A stretch of DNA of 64,000 bases from Chloroflexota bacterium (GTDB lineage: Bacteria; Chloroflexota; Dehalococcoidia; DSTF01; RBG-16-68-14). Positions 11,354 to 56,665 of this stretch are shown here, one piece after another. The position numbers were made by a program, and so were the translations under genes. The stretch lies in assembly GCA_029262675.1 (NCBI GenBank), contig JAJCYW010000021.1, positions 130,146-194,145 of the forward strand, read 5' to 3'. Position 1 is the stretch's first letter; the number at the start of each line of letters is the position of its first letter. The notes under the pieces are model-generated. The model worked only from the letters and a program-made list of their open reading frames with translations, made no database searches and was not told the origin of the DNA.

Positions 11354-13777
11354 ATGGCAACGTACAATCACGCTGAGATCGAGGCGAAGTGGAGCGCGCG
11401 CTGGGCGGAGACGGGCATCTACGAAACCGATGTCCGCACCGCGACGCGCCCCTTCTATAACCTGCTGATGTTCCCCTACCCGTCTGCGGAGGGACTTCAC
11501 ATTGGCAACATGTTCGCGTTTACGGGCGTCGACATCTTCGGCCGGCTGAAGGCGATGCAGGGCGAAGACGTCTTCGAACCGATCGGCTTCGATGCGTTCG
11601 GCATGCACAGCGAGAACTTCGCGCTGAAGCAGAACGTCCACCCTAGTGAGCTGGTACCGAACAACATCCGCAATTTCCGCCAGCAGCTCAAGTCGATGGG
11701 CGGGCGCTTCGCCTGGAGCCACGAGGTCGATACAACCCACCCCACCTACTATCGCTGGACGCAGTGGATCTTCGTGCAGCTCTTCAAGCACGGCCTGGCG
11801 GAGAAGCGCCTGGCGCCCGTCACCTGGTGCCCCTCCTGCATGACCGTGCTGGCAGATGAGCAGGTGATCAACGGGGAGTGCGAGCGTTGCAGCACGGAGG
11901 TGACCCACCGCGATCTGGAGCAGTGGTTCTTCAAGATCACAGATTTCGCCGACCGGCTGCTCTCCAACTTGGACGAGATCGACTGGACGCCGCTGATCAA
12001 GACCGCCCAGCGCAACTGGATCGGCCGCAGCGAAGGCCTGGAGACGGCGTTCCCTGTCGAGAACTCCAGCGAGTCGATCACGTTCTTCACGACGCGGCCG
12101 GACACGATCTACGGCGTCACGTTCATGGTGCTGGCCCCGGAACACCCGCTGGTGGACCAGATCGCGACCAGCGAGCAGCGAGAGGTCGTCGTCCAGTACG
12201 TAGCCGAGGCAATGAAGAAGACCGCCATTGACCGCCAGTCGATGGAGCGGAGTGGCGTCTTCACGGGGGCGTTTGCGACAAACCCGCTCAACGGCGACCG
12301 CGTGCCGATCTGGGTCGGCGACTACGTGCTGAGCACTGTCGGCACCGGCGCGATCATGGCTGTCCCCGCCCACGATACGCGCGACTTCGATTTCGCAAAG
12401 CGCTTCGACCTACCGATTCGCGTCGTCGTCGCTCCGCCGGACTGGCACGGCGCAGCTCTGGAAGACGCCTATACCGAGAGCGGCACAGTCGTCAACTCCG
12501 GTGAGTTCGACGGCATGGAGAACGAAGCCGCCGCAGCGGCCGTGATCGAGAAGCTGGAGAAGGATGGCGCCGGCAGCCGCCAGGTGCGTTTCCGCCTACG
12601 CGACTGGCTGATCTCACGACAACGCTACTGGGGCACACCGATTCCCATCATCCACTGCAAAACCTGTGGCCCAATTGCCGTGCCAGAGAGCGACCTGCCG
12701 GTTGAACTGCCGTACGTCGAGGATTTCCGCCCGACAGGGACGGATCAGTCGCCGCTCGCGTCCCTGCCGGAGTTCGTCAACGTCGACTGCCCCGAATGCG
12801 GAAAGCCGGCCCGCCGCGAGACAGATGTCTGCGACAACTTCCTGGACTCCGCCTGGTACTTCTTCCGCTACCCTTCGACGGGCAACGATGAGGCGCCTTT
12901 TGAACCGGAGCTGACGAAGCGCTGGCTGCCGGTGCATAACTACATCGGCGGCAAGGAGCATGCGGTGCTCCATCTGCTCTACACGCGATTCATCACGATG
13001 GCCCTGCACGAGATGGGCTTCATCGACTTCGAAGAGCCGTTCCGCAAGTTCCGCGCCCACGGGCTGCTGATCCTAGAAGGCGCCAAGATGAGTAAGTCGC
13101 GGGGCAACGTCGTCAACCCGGATACGTACATCGCTTCCCACGGCGCGGACACGCTGCGGACCTACCTCATGTTCTCCGGCCGCTACGAGGAAGGCGGGGA
13201 CTTTTCGGACTCCGGCATCGAGGGCGTCGCGCGGTTCCTCCAGCGCGTGCGGGATGTCTGCGAACGGTTCGTTGCGCAAGCCGGCGACGGCGAGCCGATG
13301 TCGCAGGAGGCGCAGCAGACGATGCACCGCGCGATCAAGAAGGTCGGTGCCGACATCGAGGAGTTGAAGTTCAACACCGCCATCGCAGCGCTGATGGAGT
13401 ACAGTCACGAGCTCCAGAAGCGGCCGTCGTTGAACAAGGACGAGGTGTCGATCTTCCTCAAACTGTTGGCGCCATTCGCGCCGTTCGTGACGGAGGAGCT
13501 CTGGGAGCAGATCGGACAGCCGTACTCCATCCACAACAGCGCCTGGCCCATAGCGGATGAAACGCTCGCCAAGCTGCAGGAGGTCTCGATCGCCGTCCAG
13601 ATCGACGGCCGCACGCGAGATGTCATCGAGATCGAGGCCGGTAGCGGTGAAGACGCTGCAGTCGCGGCGGCGAAGGCTTCGAAGAAGGTGCAGCGCCACC
13701 TGGAAGATGGCGCGATTGTGAAGACGATCTACGTGCCTGACAGGATGGTCAACTTCGTCACGTCAGGCAAGAAGTAG
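11354..13777 (+). CDS. leuS: Leucine--tRNA ligase (bacterial type)
   Basis: FYNLLMFPYPSAEGLHIGN HIGH region, KMSKS (GAKMSKSRGNVV), 807 aa. Confidence 0.95.
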   Translation: MATYNHAEIEAKWSARWAETGIYETDVRTATRPFYNLLMFPYPSAEGLHIGNMFAFTGVDIFGRLKAMQGEDVFEPIGFDAFGMHSENFALKQNVHPSELVPNNIRNFRQQLKSMGGRFAWSHEVDTTHPTYYRWTQWIFVQLFKHGLAEKRLAPVTWCPSCMTVLADEQVINGECERCSTEVTHRDLEQWFFKITDFADRLLSNLDEIDWTPLIKTAQRNWIGRSEGLETAFPVENSSESITFFTTRPDTIYGVTFMVLAPEHPLVDQIATSEQREVVVQYVAEAMKKTAIDRQSMERSGVFTGAFATNPLNGDRVPIWVGDYVLSTVGTGAIMAVPAHDTRDFDFAKRFDLPIRVVVAPPDWHGAALEDAYTESGTVVNSGEFDGMENEAAAAAVIEKLEKDGAGSRQVRFRLRDWLISRQRYWGTPIPIIHCKTCGPIAVPESDLPVELPYVEDFRPTGTDQSPLASLPEFVNVDCPECGKPARRETDVCDNFLDSAWYFFRYPSTGNDEAPFEPELTKRWLPVHNYIGGKEHAVLHLLYTRFITMALHEMGFIDFEEPFRKFRAHGLLILEGAKMSKSRGNVVNPDTYIASHGADTLRTYLMFSGRYEEGGDFSDSGIEGVARFLQRVRDVCERFVAQAGDGEPMSQEAQQTMHRAIKKVGADIEELKFNTAIAALMEYSHELQKRPSLNKDEVSIFLKLLAPFAPFVTEELWEQIGQPYSIHNSAWPIADETLAKLQEVSIAVQIDGRTRDVIEIEAGSGEDAAVAAAKASKKVQRHLEDGAIVKTIYVPDRMVNFVTSGKK

Positions 13778-13799
13778 CCGCAAGTGCCACGCACCTGCC

Positions 13800-14237
13800 C
13801 TAGGCAACGCAGAGCGACACGGTGACGTCCTTCTCCGTGAATGAGGAGTGGCGGTTGTCGAAGTCGAATCTATAATTGCCGCGAACCGTCCCGACAACCT
13901 CAAACTCAAGCTCGTGGGCACGATCGGTCTCGAACTGGACGACGCGGTTGGTCGGCGACCAGATGCTGAAGCCGATGTCCTGGCTATCGTTACCGGAGAC
14001 GCTGAACGTACCCGAGATCGTCTTGCCCTTCGGCACGTTGTAGAGCCACTGGCCCAGCGACCGTGCCTTAACAGAGAAGCCGATGTCTCCGCACTGTTGG
14101 CCGCCAGCCGTCGCCGCCAGCTCTGGCGCTCCGCCCAAGGTGACCGTCGCCGTTCCCAACTGACGATACATCAAGTAGCCCACGGACGCGCCCGCCGCCA
14201 GGATGGCGAACAGCGTAATCACGATCAGCTTCTGCAC
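13800..14237 (-). CDS. Hypothetical secreted or membrane-anchored small protein (N-terminal hydrophobic helix, beta-rich C-terminus)
   Basis: MQKLIVITLFAILAAGASVGYLMY... It is the last gene of the co-directional archaellum block. No family assigned. Confidence 0.35.
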   Translation of the reverse strand: MQKLIVITLFAILAAGASVGYLMYRQLGTATVTLGGAPELAATAGGQQCGDIGFSVKARSLGQWLYNVPKGKTISGTFSVSGNDSQDIGFSIWSPTNRVVQFETDRAHELEFEVVGTVRGNYRFDFDNRHSSFTEKDVTVSLCVA

Positions 14238-14340
14238 AGCGCGCTCCCTTACGCGTACTCCCTACGAGTACGCAAGCTCCGTAGGTGTATCCCCTACGTA
14301 TGTTCGGCAAGGCAGCGGGCATGCTTGAGGTTACGTCATG

Positions 14341-15507
14341 TTATGGCAAGTAGTCGAGCGGGTTGCGCCGCACCCCTCCCGCGATCAACTCGAAGTGGAG
14401 GTGCGTTCCGGTGCTGTATCCCGTGGAGCCGACGACACCCAGCGGCTCACCCTGGTGGACGCTCTGGCCGCTGGAGACGGCGAGCTGGCTTAAGTGCCCG
14501 TAGAGCGTCGTCATGCCAGACGGCGCGACGAGGATTACGTAGCGCCCGTACGAGCAACACGGGTCGCCCCCGGCAAACAGGACCACACCATCGTGCGCGG
14601 CCAACACGGGCGTACCGGGAGCCATCGTTTGGTCGACATCGATGCCGAGCGGGTGTGCGGCAGAGAAGTACGACGAGATCGGCCCGACCACGGGCCAGAC
14701 CAGGTCGTTGGTGGCGCCCGCTTCGAGGTCGAGGACCGAGTTGGGGTAACCATAGGTGGCAGCAAACGAGAGCACCTGGGCTACGTACGGCCAGGAGTGA
14801 TTATACGTGTAGATTCCTTGCCGCACGTCGACGTCCGCTCCGGCGTCCAGCAGAAAGCGGCCCATGGCCGGGATCGCGTCGCGGAAGTCGTAGGGGTCGC
14901 CACCCTCGCCGAAGGTCTCCCAGCTAGACGGCAGGAACTGGCCGTAGCCGATGGCGCCCGCCCAGCTCGTCGACATGTTGCGGCCGAGGTCGCTCTCAAC
15001 CTTGGCTATCGCCGCGAAAAGCTGCCACGGCAGACCAGTCTCCTGACTGACCTGGAGCATGACAGCGAGCTGATCGACAGGAATATCGAGTCCGCCCGAA
15101 CCAAGCGCCGATACGGTGATGCTGCCCGGCCGCAGGCTGAGGACGGGCCAGACGCGCGCGTTCGTCGAGAGGTCGCCGCGACCGCTACCTCCAACAGAAG
15201 AGCCAGGCCCCACGGCCAACGCACCTTCCGGCACCGCATAGTGCAGGACCACCGTCGGTGTGGGCGGACCACCGTCGCCGTCGCCGCCGAGGACAGCGTC
15301 TGCCGCGTCGCCGTCGTCGTCCGCGCCACCGGCGTCCGTGCGCACATCGCCGGACGCGGCGTCATCGCCCTCCACTGGCGCAACCTCCGACGCCGGCGCA
15401 CCGATATAGCCCACGAAGTCCGACCTCGCGGCGTAGGCCGAGACGGCTACGGCGGCGAGTCCTATCAAGAGGGTCGCTGCGATGATGGCGCGCGTGAAAA
15501 GAGACAT
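14341..15507 (-). CDS. Bifunctional peptidoglycan hydrolase: SLT-domain lytic transglycosylase fused to an M23 (LytM) metallopeptidase
   Basis: SLT motifs (AIAKVESDLGRNMSTSWAGAIGYGQFLPSSW), then C-terminal M23 motifs (GTPVLAAHDGVV...YGRYVIL...HLS...GSTGYSTGTHLHFEL). The start is set at MSLFTRAII (ATG 15505-15507), which has a signal-like transmembrane segment. The track start at 15597 adds an Arg/Pro-rich extension. Confidence 0.75.
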   Translation of the reverse strand: MSLFTRAIIAATLLIGLAAVAVSAYAARSDFVGYIGAPASEVAPVEGDDAASGDVRTDAGGADDDGDAADAVLGGDGDGGPPTPTVVLHYAVPEGALAVGPGSSVGGSGRGDLSTNARVWPVLSLRPGSITVSALGSGGLDIPVDQLAVMLQVSQETGLPWQLFAAIAKVESDLGRNMSTSWAGAIGYGQFLPSSWETFGEGGDPYDFRDAIPAMGRFLLDAGADVDVRQGIYTYNHSWPYVAQVLSFAATYGYPNSVLDLEAGATNDLVWPVVGPISSYFSAAHPLGIDVDQTMAPGTPVLAAHDGVVLFAGGDPCCSYGRYVILVAPSGMTTLYGHLSQLAVSSGQSVHQGEPLGVVGSTGYSTGTHLHFELIAGGVRRNPLDYLP

Positions 15508-15538
15508 GAGATCGATTATCGCCTGAGCCGTTGCCGAC

Positions 15539-16045
15539 CTAGGCCGCGACGTCCTCGTCTTCCGCGGACGTGGCGGGCAGCATGGCGCGGATCTCACGCA
15601 GCTGTTCGGCGAGTTCGTTTATCGGCACGTCTTCGATGCCTTCCGTCAGGCTGGTCAGTTCTGTAGACACAACGCCTACCTCGAACGCGGAGAGCGGGTC
15701 GTCGTCAGCGGCTTCTTCGACCGGCGGCTCGTTGGCCAACTCGTCGGCCTCAGCTAGAGGACTCTCGGGCTCCGCAGCCTCGTCCGCCAGTTCCGCGTCA
15801 AGAGCGTCAGCTTCCGGTGCCAGACTCGGCTCAACTTCGCTAGATGCCGATTCCGCATCGATTGCCCGGGGCAGCGCGCTCTGCTGGGTCCGCAGGTCCG
15901 GCTTGGCGCTGGCCGTGCCTGGCTCGGCCGCAGCGCCCGTGGGCATCAGCAACCCCTCATCTTCGCTAACGTCGGCCAGCGACGCGTCTGCGCCATCCTC
16001 CGAACCCTCATCGTTGCCTTTCTTGAACCGTGATAACAGTCGCAT
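15539..16045 (-). CDS. Highly acidic low-complexity protein (Asp/Glu/Ala-rich), unknown function
   Basis: ORF immediately downstream of the FlaJ-like gene (2-nt gap). No recognisable domain. Confidence 0.35.
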   Translation of the reverse strand: MRLLSRFKKGNDEGSEDGADASLADVSEDEGLLMPTGAAAEPGTASAKPDLRTQQSALPRAIDAESASSEVEPSLAPEADALDAELADEAAEPESPLAEADELANEPPVEEAADDDPLSAFEVGVVSTELTSLTEGIEDVPINELAEQLREIRAMLPATSAEDEDVAA

Positions 16046-16046
16046 G

Positions 16047-17657
16047 CTACGGGCCTCCTGACGGGATCGTGGACGCGCCGGGCGCGACCGGATTAGTGGC
16101 GATGCTGTCGAAGATAGAGCCGACGAGTGATGGAATGATGAGGAACGCCACGCCGGAGATCATCATCATCACTGCCGCATAAAGGCAGAGCTTCATCCGA
16201 TGACCGCCGACGGCTGCGTACGGCGCGAAGCTGTTGGCGGCCGTCAGCATCAGCGCGACCGTCGCAACGAACACAGGAATGAACTCCAGCGATGAGAACT
16301 GAAATAGCAGCACATCGCCCACGCCGGCTTCGGTAGTGATGCCGCCTTCCAGGCTCTCCTGCTGGGCCTTGCCGATCTCTCCGCCAAAGACCTGCACGAC
16401 CTCCGTGATGAACAACAGGATGCCCATCAGAACGGCGTGCATCGGCACTGCCACGAAACTGAACGTCGTCGCGACCATCTTCCTGTCCGCGCGCAGAAGC
16501 CAAATCTTCATCGCAAACTCCGAGGCGAGCGTCGAGACTTTTTCGGTATCGCCGCCGACGCGGACTCCGTCCCAAAACACACGCACGCAACGAACGACGA
16601 GGTCACTGCCGGTCTCAGACGCAAGGCGCAACCAACACAAGTCTGGCGAGATGCCGTTCTTCAGCCGCACGTAGAGCCTGTGCACGTCCGGTTCCAGTGA
16701 CCCGAGCGAACGGCGATTGAGGCGGCTTAGACCGTCGGTTGCCGTAATACCCGCCGATGACATCACGCCACCCAGTCCGCGTATGAACGCGGAGATGTCA
16801 CGGTCGTAGCCATCGATTCTCCAATCGTCCATTATCGCCAGTACGCCGACCGGGGCGATGAAGACGGCTCCGGCTAGCAGCGCATACGGCATGCCCAACA
16901 TCCGGCCCGCGCCACAGCCCGCGATGACGGCGGCCGGGATCAAGAACTTCGCGGTCCGATCAATGCGGCGCTGTTCTTTCGATTTCTGCTTGAGGCTGTG
17001 AGTTTTCACTTCGACAGGCGCTACCGTGTAGATCAGCCAGCCGCCGACAAAGGTGACGCAGATCATCAGCCCCGTAAGGCCGACGATCGTAATCGGGCTA
17101 AACGGGTAGATCATCATCGACACCAGCGAGATGACGACGACGAGCGTTGCGGAGACCATCAGCGCGACGTAGGCATCCGACCACTTCTGGAGCGATTCGA
17201 TTTTGCGGCCGTACTCCTTGCCAAACATCTCGCGTTGGAGAGCCGACTCTCGCATCAGAAAGGCCTCTTCCTTCTCCCCGGAGGAGAGGGACGTGGCGAA
17301 GTGGAGGAGCAGGTTGCGCACGCTATCGACCTTGATCCGGTCTGCGACTACTTCGCAGGCGCGCGAGTAGTCGTAGTTCAGCCGCTGCGCGACGAGATGC
17401 ACTTGGCGGAAGAACTTCGAAGTGCTGTACGAAAGGCTGGACGTGCCTTCGAAGAGCGACGTCCGGCTCATGCCCGACGTCGACACCGCCGACATGTGCG
17501 TGAGCTGCGTCAGCAGGTCGTAGTCGAGCGGTTCGCGGCTGAGCAGCCGGTCGAGGTCGATCCTGCGAGAGAGCCCCGACTCGCTGGCGACCACCTGCTC
17601 TACTACGTCAGACGAGTCCTTGTCGTTGGGCTTTACTGAAGACTTGGTAGAGGTCAT
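16047..17657 (-). CDS. arlJ: Archaellum assembly polytopic membrane protein FlaJ/ArlJ-like (two fused T2SS-F/TadC-like domains)
   Basis: 536 aa, at least 7 predicted transmembrane helices, two repeated GspF/TadC-like cytoplasmic domains in one polypeptide (archaeal FlaJ architecture; bacterial TadB/TadC are separate). It follows the FlaI-like ATPase. Confidence 0.65.
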   Translation of the reverse strand: MTSTKSSVKPNDKDSSDVVEQVVASESGLSRRIDLDRLLSREPLDYDLLTQLTHMSAVSTSGMSRTSLFEGTSSLSYSTSKFFRQVHLVAQRLNYDYSRACEVVADRIKVDSVRNLLLHFATSLSSGEKEEAFLMRESALQREMFGKEYGRKIESLQKWSDAYVALMVSATLVVVISLVSMMIYPFSPITIVGLTGLMICVTFVGGWLIYTVAPVEVKTHSLKQKSKEQRRIDRTAKFLIPAAVIAGCGAGRMLGMPYALLAGAVFIAPVGVLAIMDDWRIDGYDRDISAFIRGLGGVMSSAGITATDGLSRLNRRSLGSLEPDVHRLYVRLKNGISPDLCWLRLASETGSDLVVRCVRVFWDGVRVGGDTEKVSTLASEFAMKIWLLRADRKMVATTFSFVAVPMHAVLMGILLFITEVVQVFGGEIGKAQQESLEGGITTEAGVGDVLLFQFSSLEFIPVFVATVALMLTAANSFAPYAAVGGHRMKLCLYAAVMMMISGVAFLIIPSLVGSIFDSIATNPVAPGASTIPSGGP

Positions 17658-19347
17658 AGAAGTTCGTGACGTCCTGTTCCTTCAGGCGTTCAAACAACGC
17701 CGCTCTGCGCTCCAGTTCCTGGTAGATCATGCGCTTGTTCTCGGGCGAAAGGCCACGCTTCGGGGCCAATTGGTTCTCCAGCAGGTAGCTGTTCATGTTT
17801 CCCGTGAACTCGTGGACGTCCGTCGCGGAGTTCCAGCGGAACGACTCGACGAACGCAAAGGAATCGCTCGCCTTGTCGTACGCGACGAGCTCGTTGACGC
17901 TGATGATGCGGCGGCCGGGCTTGCCATTGGGCAGGCGCACGGCGCTGCAGATGATTGCCAGGTTGAGGTTATCGACGTAGACTTTCGGCACGTTGATCGG
18001 GCTACCGGTGAGACGCTGGATCAGTTTCTCCACAGTCGATGCGTGGAACGTCGCCATCACAGGGTGGCCCGTCTGCATCGCCTGGAACGCGATCGCCCCC
18101 TCCTCACCACGGATCTCACCGATAACGATTAGGTTGGGACGCTGACGAAGAGCGGCCTTCAGCAACCCGAACATCGTGACCCCGCCGTCTCCTTCCGACA
18201 ACGACCCGCGGACGACCTCCCGAATCCAGTTCGGGTGGGGCACCTGGAACTCCGGCGTGTCCTCGATACTGACGATCTTGGCGTCCGGCGGCACAAAAGC
18301 GGCCAGGGCGTTCAGCAGCGTCGTCTTGCCGGACGCGGTTTCGCCGGAGACAAAGGCGTTCATGCCCGCGCCGATCATCATCGTCAGATAGGCCGCCATC
18401 GTGTAGTCCATAGCGCCGAAATTGATCAGCTCTATCAGGCTGATGGGCGTCTCCTGAAACTTTCGAATGGTGAAGTTGCTGCCGGATCTTGAGACGTCCG
18501 ACCCAAAGACGATGTTGATTCGAGAGCCGTCCAGCAGCGTCGCGTCGACGATCGGGTTGCGGTACGTCACCGGCTTACCGATCCGTTCCGCCAGGCGGAG
18601 GACGAATTCGTCCAGCTCGTCGTGCGTCTCCCACGTGATGTTGCTCTTGAGGCCATCGAAGATCTTGTGCTCGATGAAAACCGAACCGAGGCCGCTACAG
18701 CTAATGTCCTCAATGTTGGGGTCACGCAGAAGGGGCTCCAGCGCGCCCATGTGGAGCTTGTCGCGGATCAACACGTACTTCAGGGCCGCCATCTCTGCAC
18801 TGGTGACCTTGATTGGGCCGGCCGAGTCTGCCCCGGAGCCCTTCTTCATGAATCCGAGCAGGCCCCCGCCACCGTCCCGCTTCTTGCCGTCACCGTCTGT
18901 GACGGCGCAGTTCTCATCAACGGCGCGCAACAGGACCTCCGCTTTCTGCTCGTCCGTCTCCGCCGCCGAGAGCTCTTCGACGTAATCGAGGAGGCGCTGA
19001 TCCATCGCCTCGAGGATCGCGTGTAGGTTCTCGAGCATCGCCGGCTCGATCGAGATGTAGAAGTCGCGGGAGTCTTCGGGATCCGGGCAGATGTGGACGA
19101 AGAGTTCTTCGTTGACGCGGTAGATTAGGTTCTTGTTCTCTAAGTCTGCCAGTTTGCGGCTCGCCTCTGGAAAGTACTCGGGAACTCCCACGTCCTTGAT
19201 CGGCACCTGGTGCAGGTAGTGCATCAGGTGCGGGGCGTTCTCCGCCTGTTGCTGAAGCTCGTCCGGAAGCAGGCTCTTAACCGAGCAGTTGGACCCGCCA
19301 CAGTCCTCGGTGCCGGATTCCGGATCGACGGCAAACGGTAGCGCCAT
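17608..19347 (-). CDS. arlI: Archaellum/type IV filament secretion ATPase FlaI/ArlI-like (VirB11/GspE superfamily)
   Basis: Walker A GETASGKTTLLNAL, SIEDTPE Asp box, Walker B LIVIGEIRGEE, His box TFHAS, and a long FlaI-like N-terminal domain. 579 aa. Confidence 0.8.
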   Translation of the reverse strand: MALPFAVDPESGTEDCGGSNCSVKSLLPDELQQQAENAPHLMHYLHQVPIKDVGVPEYFPEASRKLADLENKNLIYRVNEELFVHICPDPEDSRDFYISIEPAMLENLHAILEAMDQRLLDYVEELSAAETDEQKAEVLLRAVDENCAVTDGDGKKRDGGGGLLGFMKKGSGADSAGPIKVTSAEMAALKYVLIRDKLHMGALEPLLRDPNIEDISCSGLGSVFIEHKIFDGLKSNITWETHDELDEFVLRLAERIGKPVTYRNPIVDATLLDGSRINIVFGSDVSRSGSNFTIRKFQETPISLIELINFGAMDYTMAAYLTMMIGAGMNAFVSGETASGKTTLLNALAAFVPPDAKIVSIEDTPEFQVPHPNWIREVVRGSLSEGDGGVTMFGLLKAALRQRPNLIVIGEIRGEEGAIAFQAMQTGHPVMATFHASTVEKLIQRLTGSPINVPKVYVDNLNLAIICSAVRLPNGKPGRRIISVNELVAYDKASDSFAFVESFRWNSATDVHEFTGNMNSYLLENQLAPKRGLSPENKRMIYQELERRAALFERLKEQDVTNFYDLYQVFSKAQRQGLV

Positions 19348-19364: not shown

Positions 19365-20090
19365 CTACGCCTTGGCCCGCGTAATCGGCACGATGCGCAT
19401 ACCCAGGTTGGGCTCCACGTCAAAGCTGATCACGTTACCCGTGCTCTTCACGGCGCCGCGGATCTTAGAGACCTCCAGCGCCTTCACCAACTGGTCTCCC
19501 ACCTCCTCGACCCGCAGCCGCATGTGAGCGTCACAGATGGAGCGCAGGCGTATGAACATCTGCTCGCTGAAGACGTGGGAGTGCATGGTGAATATCAGCG
19601 TCTTGCCGAGATCGCAGAACTCCTTACAGAGCGTAAAGAACGTCAGCGTGTCCTGGTCCTGAACGTGCGACACGAATGTCGTCAGCGAATCGACGATGAC
19701 GATGTCGAAGCGATCGGCATGCTGCGCGATGTGCGCGCGCAGCGTCTGGAACACCTGCTGCGAATGTATTTCGTCGAAGGCCTGCGGCACCGGGTAGATG
19801 CTCATCTTGCCCAGCAGGAAGTAGTCCTCGACGCCGAGGCCGAGGTCCTCCATCTGGTTGAGCAGGCTGCGCGTCGTGTTCTCCGTTGTATAGAAGAGCA
19901 CGCGCAGGCCGTCGCGCAGTCCGCCCCACGTCAACTGCTGGACGAGCACGCTCTTGCCGGCATCCGACTGGCCCTCGATCAGGCTGAGGGACCCTTCAGG
20001 GATTCCGCCCGCCATCTTCTTGTCCAGCTCGATGTTACCCGTGCTGATGAGCCGCTTTGCCTTGCGGTCCGGCGCGAAACTTGCAGCCAT
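19365..20090 (-). CDS. arlH: KaiC/RecA-like ATPase FlaH/ArlH-like
   Basis: 241 aa with Walker A LIEGQSDAGKS and a single-domain KaiC-like fold, sitting between FlaG-like and FlaI-like genes as in archaeal fla operons. Confidence 0.7.
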   Translation of the reverse strand: MAASFAPDRKAKRLISTGNIELDKKMAGGIPEGSLSLIEGQSDAGKSVLVQQLTWGGLRDGLRVLFYTTENTTRSLLNQMEDLGLGVEDYFLLGKMSIYPVPQAFDEIHSQQVFQTLRAHIAQHADRFDIVIVDSLTTFVSHVQDQDTLTFFTLCKEFCDLGKTLIFTMHSHVFSEQMFIRLRSICDAHMRLRVEEVGDQLVKALEVSKIRGAVKSTGNVISFDVEPNLGMRIVPITRAKA

Positions 20091-20100
20091 ATTTGCCTCT

Positions 20101-20601
20101 CTAGATGCTGAAGAACGATGCCGCTGAGATGCCGAGCTCGGTCGTGACCTGCAGCCAGTGACTGCCGGCTCCGGCCGCGGGGCCGAGCTTGGCGCGGATG
20201 GTCATGCTTTCGCCGGCGTTGAGCACACGTGGATCGATCACGTCGTTGTCGATCGAGAGGACGCGCCAGCTGTTATCCGGCTGCGGCGATGTCACGGTAG
20301 TGAAGTCCAGGTACGTGTTGTAGGTGGTGCTGGCAGCCGTGTACTGAATCAGCATGTCTACCTTCGAAAAGTCGACGACAGCGGTCGCTCCGTCGTTGCG
20401 AACGACGACATCGATATCGGCGCCGCTGACGTTTATCGACGTGATCGAAATATCGCTGCGCACGCGCTCGACGCTCAGCTCCTCGGCGTCCTGCCAGGAG
20501 TCGCTCAGCGTGCGGAACGAGCTGAACCCGCTGCGCCCCAGCATCAGCGAGGCGATGACGAGGATGGTTACAGCCAGGAGCGCGGGCAGGACGCTATCCA
20601 C
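20101..20601 (-). CDS. arlG: FlaG/ArlG-like archaellum protein (N-terminal transmembrane helix plus beta-sandwich)
   Basis: GTG start after GGAGGGGA. MDSVLPALLAVTILVIASLML transmembrane helix then a beta-rich domain. The position after the FlaF-like gene matches the archaeal flaF-flaG-flaH order. Confidence 0.5.
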   Translation of the reverse strand: MDSVLPALLAVTILVIASLMLGRSGFSSFRTLSDSWQDAEELSVERVRSDISITSINVSGADIDVVVRNDGATAVVDFSKVDMLIQYTAASTTYNTYLDFTTVTSPQPDNSWRVLSIDNDVIDPRVLNAGESMTIRAKLGPAAGAGSHWLQVTTELGISAASFFSI

Positions 20602-20613
20602 AGATCCCCTCCA

Positions 20614-21057
20614 TCACAGCGTGAAGAACTTGGAGTCCTCGACGCCGTTGGCGGCGACGACCTTCAGGTAGTAGGTATTGCCCGTCGCAAGCGCCGTCGT
20701 AACGTAAATGGTGATATGCAACGTGGCGGTGGGGTTCCACTCGGTATCGTTCTCCAGCGTGTACTCCCAACACGGCGCCGTGCAGCTCGCGCCGCCGTAC
20801 GGGATACGCTGGAAGTCCGTCTCCGGCCCGAAGAAGACGTCCGACTGCGTGATGGCGCTGATGCGCGTGGCGCCCGTGTTCTTCACCCAGGCATCGGCCT
20901 GCGTCGCGGTATCCTGGCCGATGGCATGAATGATCTCCACGCGGCTGCTGAGCCGATCGTCCGCGACCTCTGCCGACGACACGAGCGCCGTGCCGGCTCG
21001 GCTGATGGCCGGCATCAGCGCCGTAATCACGGAACCGATGGCAACGATGGCTGCCAC
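20614..21057 (-). CDS. arlF: FlaF/ArlF-like archaellum protein (N-terminal transmembrane helix plus beta-sandwich). The true start may be an upstream non-AUG codon, extending to about 21090.
   Basis: Transmembrane helix AAIVAIGSVITALMPAI, then a beta-rich domain with a CTAPCW motif. The in-frame upstream sequence IEKSIATILLTV directly follows AAGGAGAG and has no ATG/GTG/TTG. Confidence 0.5.
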   Translation of the reverse strand: MAAIVAIGSVITALMPAISRAGTALVSSAEVADDRLSSRVEIIHAIGQDTATQADAWVKNTGATRISAITQSDVFFGPETDFQRIPYGGASCTAPCWEYTLENDTEWNPTATLHITIYVTTALATGNTYYLKVVAANGVEDSKFFTL

Positions 21058-21119: not shown

Positions 21120-22091
21120 CTACCGCACGCGGCGCAGGCGGGCTCCCCGCCTGCGTGGCAGCCTGATCACGCGCTCTCCATGCACGATTGCGTCCAACTG
21201 ACGCAGTACGACAAGACACTCATTTACGCTCACCGGCACGTCGTCGCCGGGATCGTCGTCGCCGGAGTTGTCCAGTTCGGCCAGGAACTCCCGGGCCTCA
21301 TCGGGTAGCAGCTCCGCGAACGCTGCCAGCTTGAGAACGAAGCGGTACCTGCGGGGGCCGAGGGTCGCCAGCGCCTCCTCCGCCCAAACGGCCAGTCCAG
21401 CGACAGACGCAAGCGTCCACGTCTGCTGATCATTACGTTCCGGCTGTCGCGCGCGTGCCGGCTGTCGTTGTCCGGCCGGACGTTCCGTCGTAGCGGGCGC
21501 GTCCTCGTACTCGTCTACTGCGGCGTCTTCGCCGATTTCAGCAGCCAGTTCCGCTGTCTCGTCTGCATCCAGCTCCTGCGACGCGACGGGCCGTGAGGCG
21601 CCGGCCGGCGATGACTGCTGGCCGGGAGCCCCCGGGTAGCGGATGATGTTGGTCACGGCCGGCGCTGGTGGCTGCATGGGCGCGGCCGTCGACGGCATCG
21701 GCGCTGGCGGCTGTACCGGTGCGGCCGGCGGCGGCATCAGCGTTGGCTGCTGGACCGGCGGGCCCTGCGGCGCTGGCGCGAGCGACGGCATCGCGGGCGC
21801 GACGCCGCCCGCCTGCGCGGCCATGGGCTGTGCGGCGGGCGCCCCGCCAAACGTAGGTATTGCAATAGACTCGACGCTCGGTATTTCTAGAACGCGCTTG
21901 GGCCTGGCCGGTTCTTCGTCTGGCTCTGCGAACTGCGTGGGCCGGGAAGACGTTGGAATGGTGGTATCGGCGGAGAAGGGGTTGTCCTGGGACAACACGG
22001 CGGTACGGATCTCCTTCAGGACAGCCTTAATCTCGCCCTTAAGGAGCTTAACCTCATCCTGGAGCGTCGCTACCTGACTGTTCAGTTCCAT
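21120..22091 (-). CDS. Coiled-coil and proline-rich protein at the FlaCDE/FlaX position of the cluster (function unknown)
   Basis: N-terminal heptad-like MELNSQVATLQDEVKLLKGEIKAVLKEIRTAVL, a long Pro/Ala/Gln-rich linker, and an acidic C-terminal domain. It lies between the archaellins and the FlaF-like gene. Confidence 0.35.
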   Translation of the reverse strand: MELNSQVATLQDEVKLLKGEIKAVLKEIRTAVLSQDNPFSADTTIPTSSRPTQFAEPDEEPARPKRVLEIPSVESIAIPTFGGAPAAQPMAAQAGGVAPAMPSLAPAPQGPPVQQPTLMPPPAAPVQPPAPMPSTAAPMQPPAPAVTNIIRYPGAPGQQSSPAGASRPVASQELDADETAELAAEIGEDAAVDEYEDAPATTERPAGQRQPARARQPERNDQQTWTLASVAGLAVWAEEALATLGPRRYRFVLKLAAFAELLPDEAREFLAELDNSGDDDPGDDVPVSVNECLVVLRQLDAIVHGERVIRLPRRRGARLRRVR

Positions 22092-22161: not shown

Positions 22162-22758
22162 CTAGTGAAGCTGCATGACGGCCCTTAGCTCCGTCGGTAG
22201 CTGGCGCGTGATATCTAACGTGGCTCCCACAGGCGTCTGAATCTCGAACGTGAACCGTTCGTTCGGGTCCAACGTCGGCACCGGTGTAATCGCCCCGCCG
22301 TCAACATCAACGGTTATCAGCATTAGCTCGCCCGGTTCCAGCAGCGTGTCGGTATCGCCTACGATCGTCGTCACGGCATAGGTGACATCGTTGTCCACGA
22401 CGTTGTCGTCGCGATAGGCCACTACGGTACGGTTGTTGACGCCCGCCGGGTTCAGCGGTACGGACTCACCTCCCGCGGTGGTCGCCACGGTGAGCTGGAT
22501 ATCATCCACCACAAGCGTGGCTCCCGTAGCGGTGACGACGACGCCACCGCGTATCTCCATCGTGCCTCGTGCTTTCTCCAGGCCTGCGAACACGGTTTCC
22601 TTCCCTCGTTCCGCGCTAAAGACTCCGGTGGTCAACACCACGAAGGCGAAGATCGTGGCGACTACAACGAACGCGATAAGGATGATCGCTGTTTCCAGTC
22701 CCGTGATTCCTCGTTCCCCGTTCGTCGCTCGTGTCAGTAGCTTGCTTACTCTGTTCAT
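22162..22758 (-). CDS. arlB: Archaellin (archaeal flagellin FlaB/ArlB family), copy 2
   Basis: A 17-aa basic class III signal MNRVSKLLTRATNGERG, then ITGLETAIILIAFVVVATIFAFVVLTTG (archaellin N-terminal hydrophobic domain, cleavage after Gly). 198 aa, with an NRT sequon. Confidence 0.8.
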   Translation of the reverse strand: MNRVSKLLTRATNGERGITGLETAIILIAFVVVATIFAFVVLTTGVFSAERGKETVFAGLEKARGTMEIRGGVVVTATGATLVVDDIQLTVATTAGGESVPLNPAGVNNRTVVAYRDDNVVDNDVTYAVTTIVGDTDTLLEPGELMLITVDVDGGAITPVPTLDPNERFTFEIQTPVGATLDITRQLPTELRAVMQLH

Positions 22759-22967: not shown

Positions 22968-23561
22968 CTAGTGCAACTGCATCACAGTCCGCAGCTCCGC
23001 CGGAAGCGTACGGGTGATGTCCATGGTTGCGCCGACTGGCGTCTGGATCTCGACCGTGAACTTCTCGTTCGGGTCCAGCGTCGGGGCCGGCGAAACTCCC
23101 GTGGCGACGTCGATGGCGATCACCTTGAGCTCACCTGGCTCCAGGAGCGTGTCGGTGTCACCGACGACGGTTGTCACCGTGTAGGTCACGTCGTTGTCCA
23201 CGATGTTGTCGTCGCGGTAGGCGATGACCGTCCGATTGTTGGTGCCCGACGGGTTAATCGGCACCGGCTCACCACCGGCGCTGTTGGCGACGGCGAACTG
23301 AATGTCATCGACTGCCAGCGTGGTGCCGACGGCCGTGACGACCACGCCACCGCGAAGCTCCATGCTGCCTCGCGCCTTCTCCAGGCCCGCGAACACCGTC
23401 TCCTTACCTCGCTCTGCGCTGAAGACACCAGTCGTCAGCACGACGAAGGCGAAGATGGTCGCTACGACCACGAAGGCGATGAGGATGATGGCCGTTTCCA
23501 GGCCGGTGATGCCCTGCTCACTGCGAGCGGAGCGGTCAAGAAGCATCTTCATCTTCTTCAC
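22968..23561 (-). CDS. arlB: Archaellin (FlaB/ArlB family), copy 1
   Basis: GTG start after AGAGGAGG+6 nt gives a 17-aa signal (M)KKMKMLLDRSARSEQG. The mature N-terminus is identical to copy 2 over about 50 aa. 198 aa. The track start 23615 is a likely over-extension. Confidence 0.8.
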   Translation of the reverse strand: MKKMKMLLDRSARSEQGITGLETAIILIAFVVVATIFAFVVLTTGVFSAERGKETVFAGLEKARGSMELRGGVVVTAVGTTLAVDDIQFAVANSAGGEPVPINPSGTNNRTVIAYRDDNIVDNDVTYTVTTVVGDTDTLLEPGELKVIAIDVATGVSPAPTLDPNEKFTVEIQTPVGATMDITRTLPAELRTVMQLH

Positions 23562-23828
23562 TACAAACCTCCTCTGTTGGCCGTAGTAGACGCTAGCGAG
23601 GAGCATTCTGCTCACTGCCCAACGCCTTTCTGGCCGTTGCTACCTTTCTTGCCCTCATCGGCATCTGTGCCGTTAGAGCGTGTCCACCGCGCGGTGCTTC
23701 CCGATCCCCTGGGGCGTCCTGCCCTGGGTGTAGGGTCTGCATCAGCATCGCCTACGGGCTGCAAGGAGAAGAGTAGGGATTCCCAAGAACATCGGCTGCA
23801 GGGTCACCTAATGCCGTTCCCTACGCCG

Positions 23829-25724
23829 TTACTCGTCTTTGCTCGGGGCGGCTTCGGAAACAGAGATCAACTGTGTGACGAAAAGGTCTAGCGTGATGAC
23901 AGAACCTTCGTCTGCTGGAGAAACGTCCAAGATGCCCCAGTGCGTCATGAACCCAAACGATGTGAAGCGGCCCAGCCGTATGCCATAGGAATCGCCTTCG
24001 GACTCGGCAAGCATCAATTCCCAGGGTTCAGTCGTCAGGAGCTCCTCGTAGAGCGGCGAAATCGCCGCGACAGGCTCCGTGCTCGTCCATTCGATGTGGT
24101 ACGGCAGCGGATCGCCTTCGCCAGCGTCTCGTAGCCTGCTGCCTTGCGGCAACGGGAAGTCGTCCGGAACCACCTTTAGCACCTCTGAGGGCCCGAACGG
24201 ATCGTAGGTCTGCGTGAAGGGTGGCGCGTGACCGAGATAGGCCGACGTGAAGAATGAAGCTGAAATGACTACGGCGGCCAGTGCGAACGCGGCCAGCGGT
24301 CGCAAGCGGACGGGCGTCGCCGAACGTTCTGCATTGGCGTCAGCGGACAGCGTAGGTCCACCGACTGCCGGCGCCTCAAGCGCTGCTGCCGCCTCGGGCG
24401 CGGCCGCACCTTCTTCACGCCCATTCCGGTTGACAGCCAGCGCCAGCAGGCCCACGACGGCCAGCACCAACGGCGTTATCCAGTAGATGCCGTTCGTGGG
24501 CGAGATGAAGCTGGCAGGCAGCACGGAGATGCTGCCGTCCGCCTCGACGACGCCAACCTGGACATCGACCGCAGGGAACGGCGTGGCGTGCTGGCTGGCA
24601 AGCATTGCAGCGTAGAAACCGATGAGGATGACGGGGATCAGGATGCTCCACTTTAGGTCGGTGCGCAGCAGCAACACCGCTGCGACGGCCAGTATCCCCC
24701 AGTCGTAGAAGTTCGCGTACGGCGTGACGATCAGCATGCCGAGAGCTGCGGCCGCCATCGCGACCGACCGCACGCCCTGCGCCCAGGCGACGACGACGAC
24801 GCCGAGGCTGAGGAACGAGAGAACCAAGGCCAGCATCGGGATCGGCTCGATGCCGCTGCTAATCAGAAAGCCCTGCCAGGCGTACTGCCACGACTGTTGG
24901 TACGGGAGGAGGTTGTCTCTCGCGTCGGCGCTGAGGTCGAAGAAGCTGGATATGTACGGGCCGACGTTGCTAAAGCCGACGGCGGCAAACCCGGCGACTT
25001 CCAACACGAGCGTTCCGGCCACCATCGCGGCGAGCGCTCGGCCGTTGCGGGTCCAGAGTAGGTAGAGCCCCGGAACGGCCGCATACTGCGGCTTCAGCAC
25101 CAATACAGCGAAGCAGAGTCCGGCCAGAATCGGATGCCGCTTCAGCAGCAAGAACCCGCCAAGCGCGGACAATGCCAGCATTGATGTCATATGACCTAAC
25201 CGAAGCGCCCAATGCATCTGCGGCAGGCTGATGATACCCAGCGCCACCGCCAGCTTCCCTTCAATTGAATTCACATTGCGCTGGGCGATGAATGCAATCG
25301 CCAAGACAGCTAACATCCCGAGGCCGACGTAGACGCGATAAGCGTTGTGAACATGCATCCACGACAGTGGATGCATGACGAGCGAGAGGCCCGGACTGTA
25401 GAGTCCGTTGATGTTCAGGTTAGCCGCATCATCATAGAAGTTGGCGAAATCGCCCATTCGGTCGGCCGTCCACCACATCTCGAGCGTCTCCGGAAGGACG
25501 GCGGCCAGTACCGCAAGTTCGACTCCGACGATGACGAGCAGGGACAGTGATGCGAGAGCGGCCAGCCGTGCGGGCCGGATCGCGCCCGGTCGCCAGCGCA
25601 CGACGGTATCCAGAGCGAGCGTTGTCACTGGTCGAACCTCCTCGGTGGCGTCGGGCCGGCCGCGGCCGTCGACTAGTTCATTGTTGCCGGATGCACGCAA
25701 GCGTGGCAGTAGGGCCGCCCCCAA
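23829..25724 (-). CDS. Large polytopic membrane protein, putative GT-C-fold/DUF2029-like glycosyltransferase with a C-terminal extracytoplasmic domain
   Basis: About 13 predicted transmembrane helices, a first extracytoplasmic loop with acidic DRMGDFANFYDD, and a roughly 170-aa soluble C-terminal domain. It is co-directional with and immediately upstream of the archaellin genes. The family assignment comes from architecture only. Confidence 0.35.
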   Translation of the reverse strand: MGAALLPRLRASGNNELVDGRGRPDATEEVRPVTTLALDTVVRWRPGAIRPARLAALASLSLLVIVGVELAVLAAVLPETLEMWWTADRMGDFANFYDDAANLNINGLYSPGLSLVMHPLSWMHVHNAYRVYVGLGMLAVLAIAFIAQRNVNSIEGKLAVALGIISLPQMHWALRLGHMTSMLALSALGGFLLLKRHPILAGLCFAVLVLKPQYAAVPGLYLLWTRNGRALAAMVAGTLVLEVAGFAAVGFSNVGPYISSFFDLSADARDNLLPYQQSWQYAWQGFLISSGIEPIPMLALVLSFLSLGVVVVAWAQGVRSVAMAAAALGMLIVTPYANFYDWGILAVAAVLLLRTDLKWSILIPVILIGFYAAMLASQHATPFPAVDVQVGVVEADGSISVLPASFISPTNGIYWITPLVLAVVGLLALAVNRNGREEGAAAPEAAAALEAPAVGGPTLSADANAERSATPVRLRPLAAFALAAVVISASFFTSAYLGHAPPFTQTYDPFGPSEVLKVVPDDFPLPQGSRLRDAGEGDPLPYHIEWTSTEPVAAISPLYEELLTTEPWELMLAESEGDSYGIRLGRFTSFGFMTHWGILDVSPADEGSVITLDLFVTQLISVSEAAPSKDE

Positions 25725-53336: not shown

Positions 53337-54482
53337 ATGGCAAGCGAAAAACAACCACCGCGCCCGACTGTCGATATCGGGGCCGACCTGCTCGTCCAAA
53401 ACTGGCGTGGCGAGCTGGAAGCGGTCGAACTCTACCAAGTGCTGGCCAAGCACGAACGGTCCGAGCAGCGCACCCAGATCCTGCTGGAGATGGTCAAGGA
53501 CGAGGAGCGCCACGCGGACATTATGGCGCAGCGTCTGGCTGAGATGGGCGTGGCCCTTCCCGAATACAAAACCACGCTGCGCGTTCGCGTGATGGGGCTG
53601 CTGGCGCGGCTCTTTGGTACGAGCGCCGTCCTCCCCATCGTCGCCAGCATCGAGGCCGACGACGTGACGGCCTACCTTGAGCCGGAGCAGGATGTCGCAG
53701 TGCAGGGCCTGGCCGGCGACGAGCAGCGCCACTACAAGGCGCTGGGCAGCCTCTCCGGCACCGCCGACCCCGGTAGCATCGCCCGCCACGAGCGCTGGCA
53801 TCCAAAAGGTGGCGGCGGCACGCTGCGGGCGGCGATCTTCGGCGTAAGCGACGGACTGGTATCCAACCTGGCCCTGGTGATGGGCTTCGCCGGCGCCCAG
53901 GCCGATGCCGAGTTCGTGATGCTGGCCGGCGTCGCCGGGCTGCTGGCGGGCGCCTGCTCGATGGCCGCCGGTGAGTACACGTCGATGCGGGCCCAGCGCG
54001 AACTCTACGAACGACAGATCCAACTTGAGGAGACTGAGCTGCATCTGATGCCGGAAGAAGAAGAGGCTGAACTGCGGCTGATCTATCGCGCGAAGGGCAT
54101 CCCTGCGGAAGAGGCGAGGCGGCTGGCGAGCACGATCATGGCGAACAAGGACATCGCGCTCGACACGCTAGTCCGCGAAGAACTCGGCCTCGATCCCGCA
54201 GAGCTCGGCTCGCCGTGGGGCGCCGCCATCAGCTCCTTCCTGGCGTTCACCGCTGGCGCGATAGTTCCCGTGCTGGCCTATTTCAGCGGCGCGGGCTGGC
54301 TGCAGTTCGCCATCAGCGCGACGCTGAGCGGCCTGGCGCTCTTCGCCGTCGGCGCGGGCGTCTCGCTCTTCACGGGCCGCAGCGGGCTTTACAGCGGCGC
54401 GCGACAGCTCGCTATCGGCGCGGCGGCCGCGGCGATCACGTTCGGCATCGGCTCCGCGATAGGCGTGGGGGCGGGGATCTAG
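53337..54482 (+). CDS. Ferritin/rubrerythrin-like domain fused to a VIT1/CCC1 family iron/manganese transporter
   Basis: N-terminal four-helix ExxH pairs (ELYQVLAKHE..., DEERHAD...), then a VIT1 membrane domain (GVSDGLVSNLALVMG...). TATACT lies 9 nt before the ATG. Confidence 0.65.
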   Translation: MASEKQPPRPTVDIGADLLVQNWRGELEAVELYQVLAKHERSEQRTQILLEMVKDEERHADIMAQRLAEMGVALPEYKTTLRVRVMGLLARLFGTSAVLPIVASIEADDVTAYLEPEQDVAVQGLAGDEQRHYKALGSLSGTADPGSIARHERWHPKGGGGTLRAAIFGVSDGLVSNLALVMGFAGAQADAEFVMLAGVAGLLAGACSMAAGEYTSMRAQRELYERQIQLEETELHLMPEEEEAELRLIYRAKGIPAEEARRLASTIMANKDIALDTLVREELGLDPAELGSPWGAAISSFLAFTAGAIVPVLAYFSGAGWLQFAISATLSGLALFAVGAGVSLFTGRSGLYSGARQLAIGAAAAAITFGIGSAIGVGAGI

Positions 54483-54486
54483 AAAC

Positions 54487-56658: not shown

Positions 56659-56665
56659 GGGTCTC

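Follow-up and report, generated by a model that had tools for sequence, protein, structure and literature searches.

The 64,000-nucleotide stretch analysed here (the window; positions 130,146 to 194,145 of contig JAJCYW010000021.1 in the Chloroflexota assembly GCA_029262675.1) carries a cluster of archaellum (arl) genes and, at the 3' end of this cluster, a gene for a predicted peptidoglycan (PG) hydrolase that combines an SLT (lytic transglycosylase) domain with an M23 (endopeptidase) domain. An earlier, sequence-only reading of the window had taken this protein for a secreted bacterial accessory recruited to open a local hole in the sacculus for the filament. All arl genes, a small acidic open reading frame (ORF), the hydrolase gene and an ORF for a GOLD-like protein are co-oriented on the minus strand (Table 1). 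The gap between arlJ and the acidic ORF is 1 nt and that between the acidic ORF and the hydrolase gene is 31 nt, with nothing else between arlJ and the hydrolase gene; coordinates and family matches agree with the earlier description of a gene co-oriented with arlI-arlJ and parted from them by one small acidic ORF.

Table 1. Features of the archaellum cluster, the hydrolase gene and its flank, in window coordinates (TM, transmembrane; pLDDT, predicted local distance difference test score)
Feature	Coordinates	Strand	Basis and remarks
leuS, convergent	11354-13777	+	
Exported GOLD/emp24-like protein, 145 aa	13800-14237	-	Pfam EMP24_GP25L 2e-10; last gene before convergent leuS
Hydrolase gene: TM/signal helix + linker + SLT + M23, predicted PG hydrolase	14341..15507	-	388 aa, stop included
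M23 (LytM-type) metallo-endopeptidase domain, residues ~270-388	14344..14700	-	Pfam, PDB profiles, Foldseek
Compact SLT_2/MltB-type catalytic core, residues ~140-255	14743..15090	-	Pfam SLT_2, motifs, AlphaFold2
Codon of predicted catalytic Glu171	14995-14997	-	
Disordered acidic/Gly/Pro-rich linker, residues 36-138	15094..15402	-	pLDDT <50
N-terminal hydrophobic helix, signal peptide or signal-anchor, residues 1-27	15427..15507	-	Ends AYA-A; alignment, AlphaFold2
Acidic ORF, 168 aa, putative hydrolase partner	15539..16045	-	Strong AGGAGG Shine-Dalgarno within arlJ 3' end
arlJ (platform protein)	16047-17657	-	NCBIfam ArlJ/FlaJ 2e-123, 412 bits, below cut-off 570; Pfam T2SSF
arlI (motor ATPase)	17608-19347	-	NCBIfam archaellum ATPase FlaI 1e-195, 651 bits vs cut-off 550
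arlH (KaiC-like)	19365-20090	-	NCBIfam FlaH 2e-85, above cut-off
Two arlF/arlG-like stator genes	20101-20601, 20614-21057	-	Pfam FlaF_Ig-like, Arch_flagellin; NCBIfam ArlF/ArlG weak
Pro-rich ORF, 323 aa, in arlC/D/E position	21120-22091	-	No Pfam or NCBIfam match; homologs in same position in related loci
arlB (archaellin) copy	22162-22758	-	Pfam Arch_flagellin 3e-24
arlB (archaellin) copy	22968-23615	-	Close paralog of first copy in translation; start uncertain

Domain architecture of the hydrolase

The hydrolase ORF runs on the minus strand from an ATG at 15507 to a TAA at 14341-14343 and encodes 388 aa. This ATG was taken as the start because the N-termini of 39 aligned homologs begin there; an alternative GTG at 15597, which would overlap the upstream gene, has no support from these homologs. 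A search of a large protein collection returned ~80 orthologs of full length at 46-72% identity, every one from a metagenome or a metagenome-assembled genome, and AlphaFold2 run on the family alignment modelled both catalytic domains with a pLDDT of ~90. No comparable homolog or structure support was found for a 390-aa ORF on the opposite strand (14494-15666). The hydrolase ORF is confirmed as a real gene rather than a chance ORF in GC-rich DNA, and the fused SLT and M23 protein of the sequence-only reading stands on the Pfam matches, the AlphaFold2 model and the ~80 orthologs.

In the C-terminal domain, Pfam Peptidase_M23 (PF01551) matches residues 291-383 (E=1e-25, 90.2 bits against a cut-off of 28.7) over positions 6-96 of its 96-position model, and PDB profile matches comprise StM23, Csd, DipM, ShyA and LytM. 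Foldseek also paired this domain with DipM, StM23, Csd1/2, ShyA and LytM, with E-values down to 5e-12 and TM-scores of 0.73-0.81 on the target. The domain is beta-rich in the AlphaFold2 model (pLDDT ~90), and the NCBIfam matches of the protein, to MepM, ShyA, DipM and MltB, are all sub-threshold. Conservation of the catalytic residues and of the N-terminus was scored on an alignment of 39 orthologs, in which every sequence has D290 and H338 and at least 90% have H285, H369 and H371. The first metal motif reads HPLGID (Hx4D) in most family members, against the canonical HxxxD, while some keep the canonical spacing (HQ-AID). A vicinal Cys317-Cys318 pair ('GGDPCCSYG', nt ~14554-14559), unusual for M23 enzymes, is invariant in the orthologs. 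The Hx4D variant is also found in housekeeping LysM-M23 enzymes of Dehalococcoidia, and the Cys-Cys pair and Hx4D together recur in the LysM-M23 proteins P0092-P0120, where they mark a Dehalococcoidia-wide M23 subfamily. Because both traits are present in these LysM-M23 enzymes, they are ascribed to the M23 lineage rather than to decay, and the occurrence of Hx4D in housekeeping enzymes suggests that this variant of the metal motif may be functional.

The region ahead of the M23 domain is all-alpha in the AlphaFold2 model (pLDDT 90-98) and matches Pfam SLT_2 at residues 177-206, with 31.6 bits for a cut-off of 24.3. E171-S172, 'AGAIGYGQF' and Y235-N236 are invariant in the 39 orthologs, with H237 and S238 kept in at least 90%, and across the family the motifs read AKVE171S, AGAIGYGQFLP and YNHSxxY (YNHSWPY). 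A profile of the region aligns to 'GVETRWG', 'GAMGYGQFMP' and 'YNHS' of Slt35 and to 'SIES' of phiKZ gp144; the GVETRWG motif is the site of the Slt35 catalytic Glu. The combination that marks lytic transglycosylases, an E-S/T at a helix end with GxxGxxQF and YNxSxxY, is therefore present. The E-S/T after a helix, GxxGYGQFxP and YNHSxxY are common to this protein and MltB/Slt35, but the hydrolase keeps only the ~115-aa core: the flanking alpha and gamma domains of MltB are missing, as is a ~30-residue insertion after the catalytic Glu. Membership of the MltB family was rejected, given NCBIfam MltB scores of 22-24 bits against cut-offs of 248-449 and the lack of the full alpha/beta/gamma architecture, and on sequence grounds the region is a compact SLT core and not an MltB ortholog. 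FlgJ membership was rejected as well, since no FlgJ rod-cap or glucosaminidase (GH73) family is among the Pfam and NCBIfam matches of the protein. The fold search used the model of the whole protein, and M23 matches dominate its results. The catalytic residues of both domains are conserved in the 39-ortholog alignment, contrary to the dead domains (SLT Glu or M23 His ligands mutated) that the sequence-only reading had named as fatal to its idea.

Residues 1-27, MSLFTRAIIAATLLIGLAAVAVSAYAA, form a hydrophobic helix that terminates in a conserved AYA-A motif. AlphaFold2 placed the N-terminal helix at residues 3-35 with a pLDDT >90, and R6, T12, L15, M20, V22, S23, Y25, A26 and A27 show little or no variation among the 39 sequences. 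The helix is thus unusually well conserved, an indirect hint that it may contact a component of the archaellum. A signal peptide and a membrane anchor both fit the sequence, and export is plausible; the earlier term 'secreted' is retained as plausible from the hydrophobic helix. A class III (prepilin/archaellin-type) signal peptide was considered and rejected, as many orthologs have no G, A or S at position -1 after the conserved R6. Following the helix, the linker ends in the conserved motifs 'PTP..(R)YA(A/V)PxxA' and 'RVWxVxSxRP', and its conserved positions in the 39-sequence alignment are P93, S114, W120, V122 and S124.

Linkage to archaellum loci and variants of the slot after arlJ

Species-representative genomes were scanned with ArlI, which yielded 80 loci (denoted by L numbers), 69 of them bacterial, nearly all labelled Chloroflexota, and 11 archaeal. 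The nearest species-representative relatives have an ArlI at most 73% identical to that of the window. These loci were searched with family-derived hidden Markov models (SLT and M23) and with Amidase_3 and LysM profiles, together with Pfam spot checks, a procedure that very divergent hydrolases could escape. A metagenome scan seeded on the SLT motifs added three further arl-linked orthologs (L089-L091) and at least 33 loci with clusters for a type IV secretion system (T4SS).

All 10 distinct orthologs that could be placed on contigs directly follow arlJ and the acidic ORF. They comprise the SLT-M23 loci L001, L003, L004=L008, L005, L006=L091, L009, L089 and L090 and the SLT-only loci L087 and L088, and the related contigs are labelled Dehalococcoidia. 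Among the orthologs placed on contigs, none lies outside an arl locus, so the co-conservation with arl genes that the sequence-only reading had proposed to check holds in 10 of 10 cases. The orthologs of L004 and L005 are only 49-51% identical to the hydrolase of the window and have different flanks, with a patatin gene upstream and neither the GOLD-like gene nor leuS downstream. In both, the genes between arlB and the hydrolase gene, these two included, still form an intact unit. Across loci, -4 to 31 nt separate the acidic ORF and the hydrolase gene; L004, L009 and L087 show 4-nt overlaps of the ATGA type. Such short or overlapping gaps fit co-transcription and translational coupling of the hydrolase and do not prove them. 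Encoded within the arl cluster and conserved with it, the hydrolase has the genetic setting of a machine-dedicated enzyme.

The acidic ORF has no Pfam or NCBIfam match, and homologs of its product are encoded directly after arlJ in the archaeal loci L042, L056, L058, L060, L070 and L086 as well as in most Chloroflexota loci. The protein family is recognised by a C-terminal motif of ~40 aa, approximately 'D.LL..F....L.D(V/I)(P/S)..ELL.E.R.I...L', and some versions carry an N-terminal TM helix. In L013 and L016, the acidic ORF and an M23 gene have been relocated jointly to a position between or upstream of arlB genes, with a 4-nt overlap retained. In L036 and L020, a TM helix connects the cytoplasmic acidic motif with two LysM domains, to which L036 adds M23; these are Rosetta-stone fusions, and they hint indirectly at a physical link between the motor side and PG. 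By its conservation and placement, the acidic ORF is a conserved arl-associated gene, and a partner gene of the hydrolase, rather than a spacer, and it may represent an undescribed conserved archaellum component. Its pairing with the hydrolase gene is the strongest indication from sequence comparison that the hydrolase works with the arl machinery.

Only the closest clade, in which ArlI is at least 72% identical, has the SLT-M23 fusion itself, and the hydrolase gene occurs in ~10% of Chloroflexota arl loci counted at species level. In each of the six informative loci whose ArlI is at least 60% identical, a PG hydrolase is encoded within or next to the arl cluster, and the slot after arlJ and the acidic ORF is filled in several ways. 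The SLT-only versions of L087 and L088 share the same leuS synteny. A TM helix followed by an Amidase_3-like domain and M23 is encoded in L010 (13798-15021), L013 (4660-5889) and L016 (4257-5450); in L010 the Zn-ligand His residues of Amidase_3 have been replaced, H to N (GHG to GNG) and H to R (SLHSN to TIRGA), and the domain is catalytically dead. L011 encodes an intact Amidase_3 (E=1e-36) without M23 at 13685-14671, 435 nt after arlJ, and its acidic ORF appears frameshifted. The L036 version (13048-14820) is a single 590-aa protein made up of the acidic ORF, a TM helix, two LysM domains and M23, and L020 (7947-9296) encodes a LysM-only protein with the acidic motif at its N-terminus, a TM helix and two LysM domains and without M23. 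The SLT-M23, SLT-only, dead-Amidase_3-M23 and Amidase_3 versions all begin with a TM helix and contain a '(Y)A(A/V)PxxALPA' motif ahead of their catalytic modules. Because these slot variants share the N-terminal helix and the pre-catalytic motif, the comparison suggests a single gene lineage whose catalytic heads have been swapped. The L036 version has no such N-terminal module and appears to be an independent acquisition. As a negative control, none of the 11 archaeal ArlI loci contained SLT, M23, Amidase_3 or LysM genes.

Two further genes were seen near these slots. L085 has a Peptidase_A24 (PilD-type) gene at 14256-14882, directly after the post-arlJ ORF. L013 (3116-3874) and L016 (2582-3271) encode an exported HExxH protein (HEAGH / HEDGH) upstream of the relocated pair of acidic ORF and M23 gene, which by its motif is likely to be a Zn-protease.

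The binding-type variants raise a rival to wall opening, in which the hydrolase and the acidic ORF serve as a PG anchor that ties the motor or stator to the sacculus for torque and replaces the archaeal S-layer anchor of ArlF/G. Cleavage would then be secondary or needed for insertion only, and the cutting and anchoring roles could combine. This reading draws on the LysM-only protein of L020, the LysM-M23 protein fused to the acidic motif in L036, the dead Amidase_3 of L010, L013 and L016, and about nine other loci (L030, L035, L045, L046, L047, L051, L052, L066 and L068; some labelled Anaerolineae and others just Chloroflexota) that encode LysM proteins on the same strand, 3-7 kb downstream of arlJ. 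An association with LysM domains as such appears in more loci than the three PilO-LysM cases of PMC13319060. Anchoring of the stator is seen as the key unsolved problem in the field, where PilO-LysM has been proposed to fill this role in Litorilinea aerophila (PMC13319060). Both catalytic centres of the hydrolase are strictly conserved over the ~80 orthologs, which speaks against a purely structural role. Degenerate LytM factors such as EnvC and NlpD, by contrast, lose their catalytic residues. In addition, the closest SLT relatives are wall-opening enzymes of T4SSs (see below), and a disordered tether of ~100 aa would be poor at bearing torque. We regard anchoring as a serious alternative that is, on balance, unlikely.

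Origin of the catalytic modules and genomic surroundings

The SLT domain of the hydrolase is 63-87% identical to that of the arl-linked orthologs and 64-70% identical to that of T4SS-linked SLT hydrolases, several of which carry NlpC/P60 according to precomputed Pfam annotation. In the T4SS clusters the gene order is TrbL_4 (VirB6-like), SLT hydrolase, small ORF, PrgI, ORF and VirB4-like ATPase; in L092-L134 (e.g. L093:3035-10727) a ParM-like actin gene precedes TrbL_4 and the hydrolase is of the SLT(-M23 or -NlpC/P60) type. We presume that these SLT-carrying clusters are of the monoderm type. In a neighbor-joining analysis (200 bootstraps, 114 columns), arl-linked and T4SS-linked SLT domains were separated together from the outgroup in 200/200 replicates, the one split with bootstrap support, and monophyly of the arl-linked SLT domains was recovered in just 17/200. 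The M23 domain gave a different picture, as it is 61-69% identical to Dehalococcoidia LysM-M23 enzymes and 44-49% identical to the M23 domains of the four T4SS loci that have their own SLT-M23 fusion (L092-L095). The SLT-M23 combination has arisen at least twice beside trans-envelope machines. Because its SLT domain is nearest to T4SS hydrolases and its M23 domain nearest to chromosomal LysM-M23 enzymes of Dehalococcoidia, the protein looks like a chimera of a T4SS-type wall-opening SLT module and a host endopeptidase.

The same M23 similarity could point to an ordinary housekeeping hydrolase, active in growth, septum splitting or daughter-cell release, that merely adjoins the arl genes or is co-regulated with motility to free swimming cells. 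P0092, the one LysM-M23 protein placed on a contig, is in a housekeeping context beside obg and ruvB, and most Chloroflexota arl loci lack a hydrolase gene of this kind. Set against this, the linkage to arl survives the changed flanks of L004 and L005, there is an overlap or only a short gap between the gene and the acidic arl gene, the two relocate as a pair in L013 and L016, several hydrolase types occupy one slot behind a common N-terminal module, and no ortholog has been placed outside an arl locus. A housekeeping role is therefore quite improbable, more so than a role in anchoring.

The descent of the SLT module also allows for a remnant of a conjugative element, or for a secreted antibacterial lysin, that stands beside the arl genes by chance. 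The nearest relatives of the module are indeed hydrolases of T4SS clusters, but the gene of the window, for all its homologous SLT domain, does not lie in such a cluster. No T4SS families were found among the scanned window proteins, which lack TrbL, PrgI and VirB4, and no TrbL_4, PrgI or VirB4-like homologs were found in the metagenomic arl loci L087-L091. Chromosomal genes (leuS, gdh, mutS, mutL) flank the hydrolase gene, which is stable among orthologs as little as 46% identical, and its N-terminal module is arl-specific and is not found in the T4SS versions. Taken together, these points make a chance neighbour of mobile or antibacterial origin very hard to credit.

Around the arl cluster, the remaining window is ordinary bacterial chromosome (gdh, mutS, mutL, thiolase). 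The product of the 323-aa ORF in the arlC/D/E position starts with a coiled coil, continues with a long Pro/Ala-rich stretch and ends in a conserved domain. Downstream of the hydrolase gene, a GOLD-like gene is found in L001, L003, L006, L009, L087 and L089-L091 and is missing in L004 and L005; it is possibly part of the arl unit, and its product, a beta-sandwich protein, may be unrelated or may act as an inhibitor or accessory factor. The 103-nt spacer between the hydrolase and GOLD-like genes holds a conserved motif, TGCCGAACAT...GTAGGGG.AACCCGTA, and an additional perfect 8-bp hairpin found in the window only. A terminator in this spacer was considered and is not claimed, with a hairpin z-score of -2.1, no U-tract, and the second hairpin missing in the orthologs. 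A promoter and terminator scan of 13.5-24.5 kb gave counts not above those of shuffled controls, and for this reason it provides no operon information.

A gene for a polytopic GT87-family glycosyltransferase (23829-25724, minus strand) lies directly upstream of arlB in the same orientation and is kept in L001, L003 and L006. Its product is a candidate for O-glycosylation of the archaellins, a modification that has been reported for bacterial archaellins (PMC12488501). Elsewhere in the window, positions 54000-56700 form the stretch of lowest GC content (0.58) and include a gene for a KAP-family P-loop NTPase (54487-56658) beside mutS, possibly a small island.

Proposed function and comparison with known systems

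With a probability of roughly 0.6, we interpret the protein as a bifunctional PG hydrolase that a Dehalococcoidia lineage attached to a horizontally acquired archaellum operon and that opens the cell wall for the filament. In this model, arlJ, the acidic ORF and the hydrolase gene would be expressed together, and the exported protein would be held at the membrane near the motor by its conserved N-terminal helix. The flexible linker of ~100 residues would give both catalytic domains reach to the sacculus. There, the lytic transglycosylase is predicted to cleave glycan strands with E171 as the catalytic acid, and the M23 domain to cleave peptide cross-links with H285, D290 and H371 as Zn ligands and H338 and H369 as catalytic residues. 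Both cuts would open and maintain a local gap for the filament, and perhaps for the ArlF/G stator, and the enzyme may be needed for archaellation. The earlier idea of a bacterial accessory that makes a local hole in the sacculus is in this respect supported by the linkage, the intact catalytic residues and the slot variants, with the hole opening itself inferred from context.

Several observations weigh against this interpretation. The SLT_2 match spans just 30 of 292 model positions (147-176), and most family members have Hx4D in place of the canonical metal motif. No PG-synthesis genes were found within the 64-kb window. No SLT, M23 or Amidase_3 gene was found within 10 kb in ~50 more distant Chloroflexota arl loci, which fill the slot with TIG/Ig-like envelope proteins, LysM proteins or two-component genes. 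The dead Amidase_3 and LysM variants raise the possibility that PG binding, and not cutting alone, is the selected property. The functional assignment, finally, is drawn from sequence, structure prediction and gene context. Because ~50 other Chloroflexota arl loci are without the gene, a dedicated hydrolase is not generally required, and a general adaptation of all bacterial archaella was rejected as an explanation. Judged by its distribution, the hydrolase is a lineage-specific solution and not a universal part of bacterial archaella.

Wall opening by a machine-dedicated enzyme has precedents in other trans-envelope systems. Conjugative T4SSs of monoderm bacteria use PG hydrolases such as PrgK (pCF10), TraG (pIP501), TcpG (pCW3) and CwlT (ICEBs1). 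Compared by description, these resemble the hydrolase of the window in being N-terminally anchored, in combining a glycan cutter with a peptide cutter and in being encoded in the cluster of a trans-envelope machine. The window protein differs from them in lying in an archaellum operon with no T4SS genes nearby and in having another N-terminal module and a long disordered linker. FlgJ, SltF/PleA and VirB1/EtgA are likewise muralytic enzymes that are genetically coupled to a machine and make a local gap in PG, and VirB1, EtgA and SltF are SLT-fold lytic transglycosylases. Each of these enzymes has a single catalytic domain, however, whereas the hydrolase of the window adds an M23 endopeptidase, and the machine that it would serve is a type-IV-filament rotary motor of archaeal origin. 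The most economical reading, by analogy, is that the hydrolase is a functional analogue of FlgJ, SltF, VirB1 and PrgK, with the bifunctional conjugation hydrolases of Gram-positive bacteria as the closest counterparts.

A similar pairing of activities is known from phi29 gp13, a tail enzyme with a lysozyme-like domain and M23 that acts on Gram-positive-type walls, and Foldseek aligned the hydrolase to its structure 3csq over 286 columns; the pre-ejectosome protein of cyanophage A4 (9k2v) was also matched. These phage enzymes differ in being only 14-15% identical and in being virion proteins with no membrane anchor and no motility operon.

Archaella in Chloroflexota have been published earlier (PMC12488501), and a working transfer of the archaellum into PG-walled bacteria was reported in 2025. 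In L. aerophila, PilO-LysM and PilN are bacterial PG-interacting proteins recruited to a Chloroflexota arl locus and proposed as an envelope adaptation (PMC12488501, PMC13319060), and in this they resemble the hydrolase. They differ from it in being PG-binding, non-catalytic homologs of alignment-complex proteins encoded upstream of the locus, while the hydrolase is predicted to be catalytic and is encoded at the 3' end of the operon. The hydrolase also occurs in another class, Dehalococcoidia, and in its loci no LysM gene was found by scans that did not include PilN/PilO models. How Chloroflexota that lack PilN/PilO pass archaella through PG, or anchor them in it, was stated to be unknown in the 2026 envelope paper (PMC13319060). 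No link between an archaellum and a lytic transglycosylase, an M23 enzyme or another PG hydrolase was found in the L. aerophila papers, their supplements, the F1-chemosensory preprint or the other full texts searched. The enzyme classes and the principle are known; new are the coupling of such enzymes to an archaellum, the modular nature of the slot and the descent from a T4SS.

A broader and rather unlikely extension of this model, which we offer tentatively, treats the acidic ORF and the hydrolase as parts of one new module for trans-membrane coupling in the bacterial archaellum. An acidic protein from the archaeal donor, docked at the motor, would recruit an envelope enzyme (with the two fused in L036 and L020). 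Besides making the opening in the sacculus, this enzyme would remain attached there and serve as a PG bushing or anchor in place of the archaeal S-layer anchor. If true, this would amount to a modular adaptor in which SLT, Amidase_3, M23 and LysM domains are swapped behind one N-terminal targeting module, and it would account for the ability of a rotary machine to function after passing from one domain of life to another.

Independently of this extension, the locus is a concrete and testable candidate, in which the natural domain-swap variants provide a built-in comparative experiment. It draws attention to the acidic gene, as yet without a name, that is found behind arlJ in archaea as well as in bacteria. 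It may also illustrate how a foreign nanomachine is domesticated, with a conjugation-type wall opener and a host endopeptidase placed behind an arl-specific targeting segment, and it makes the hydrolase the best candidate yet for the passage of an archaellum through a bacterial cell wall.

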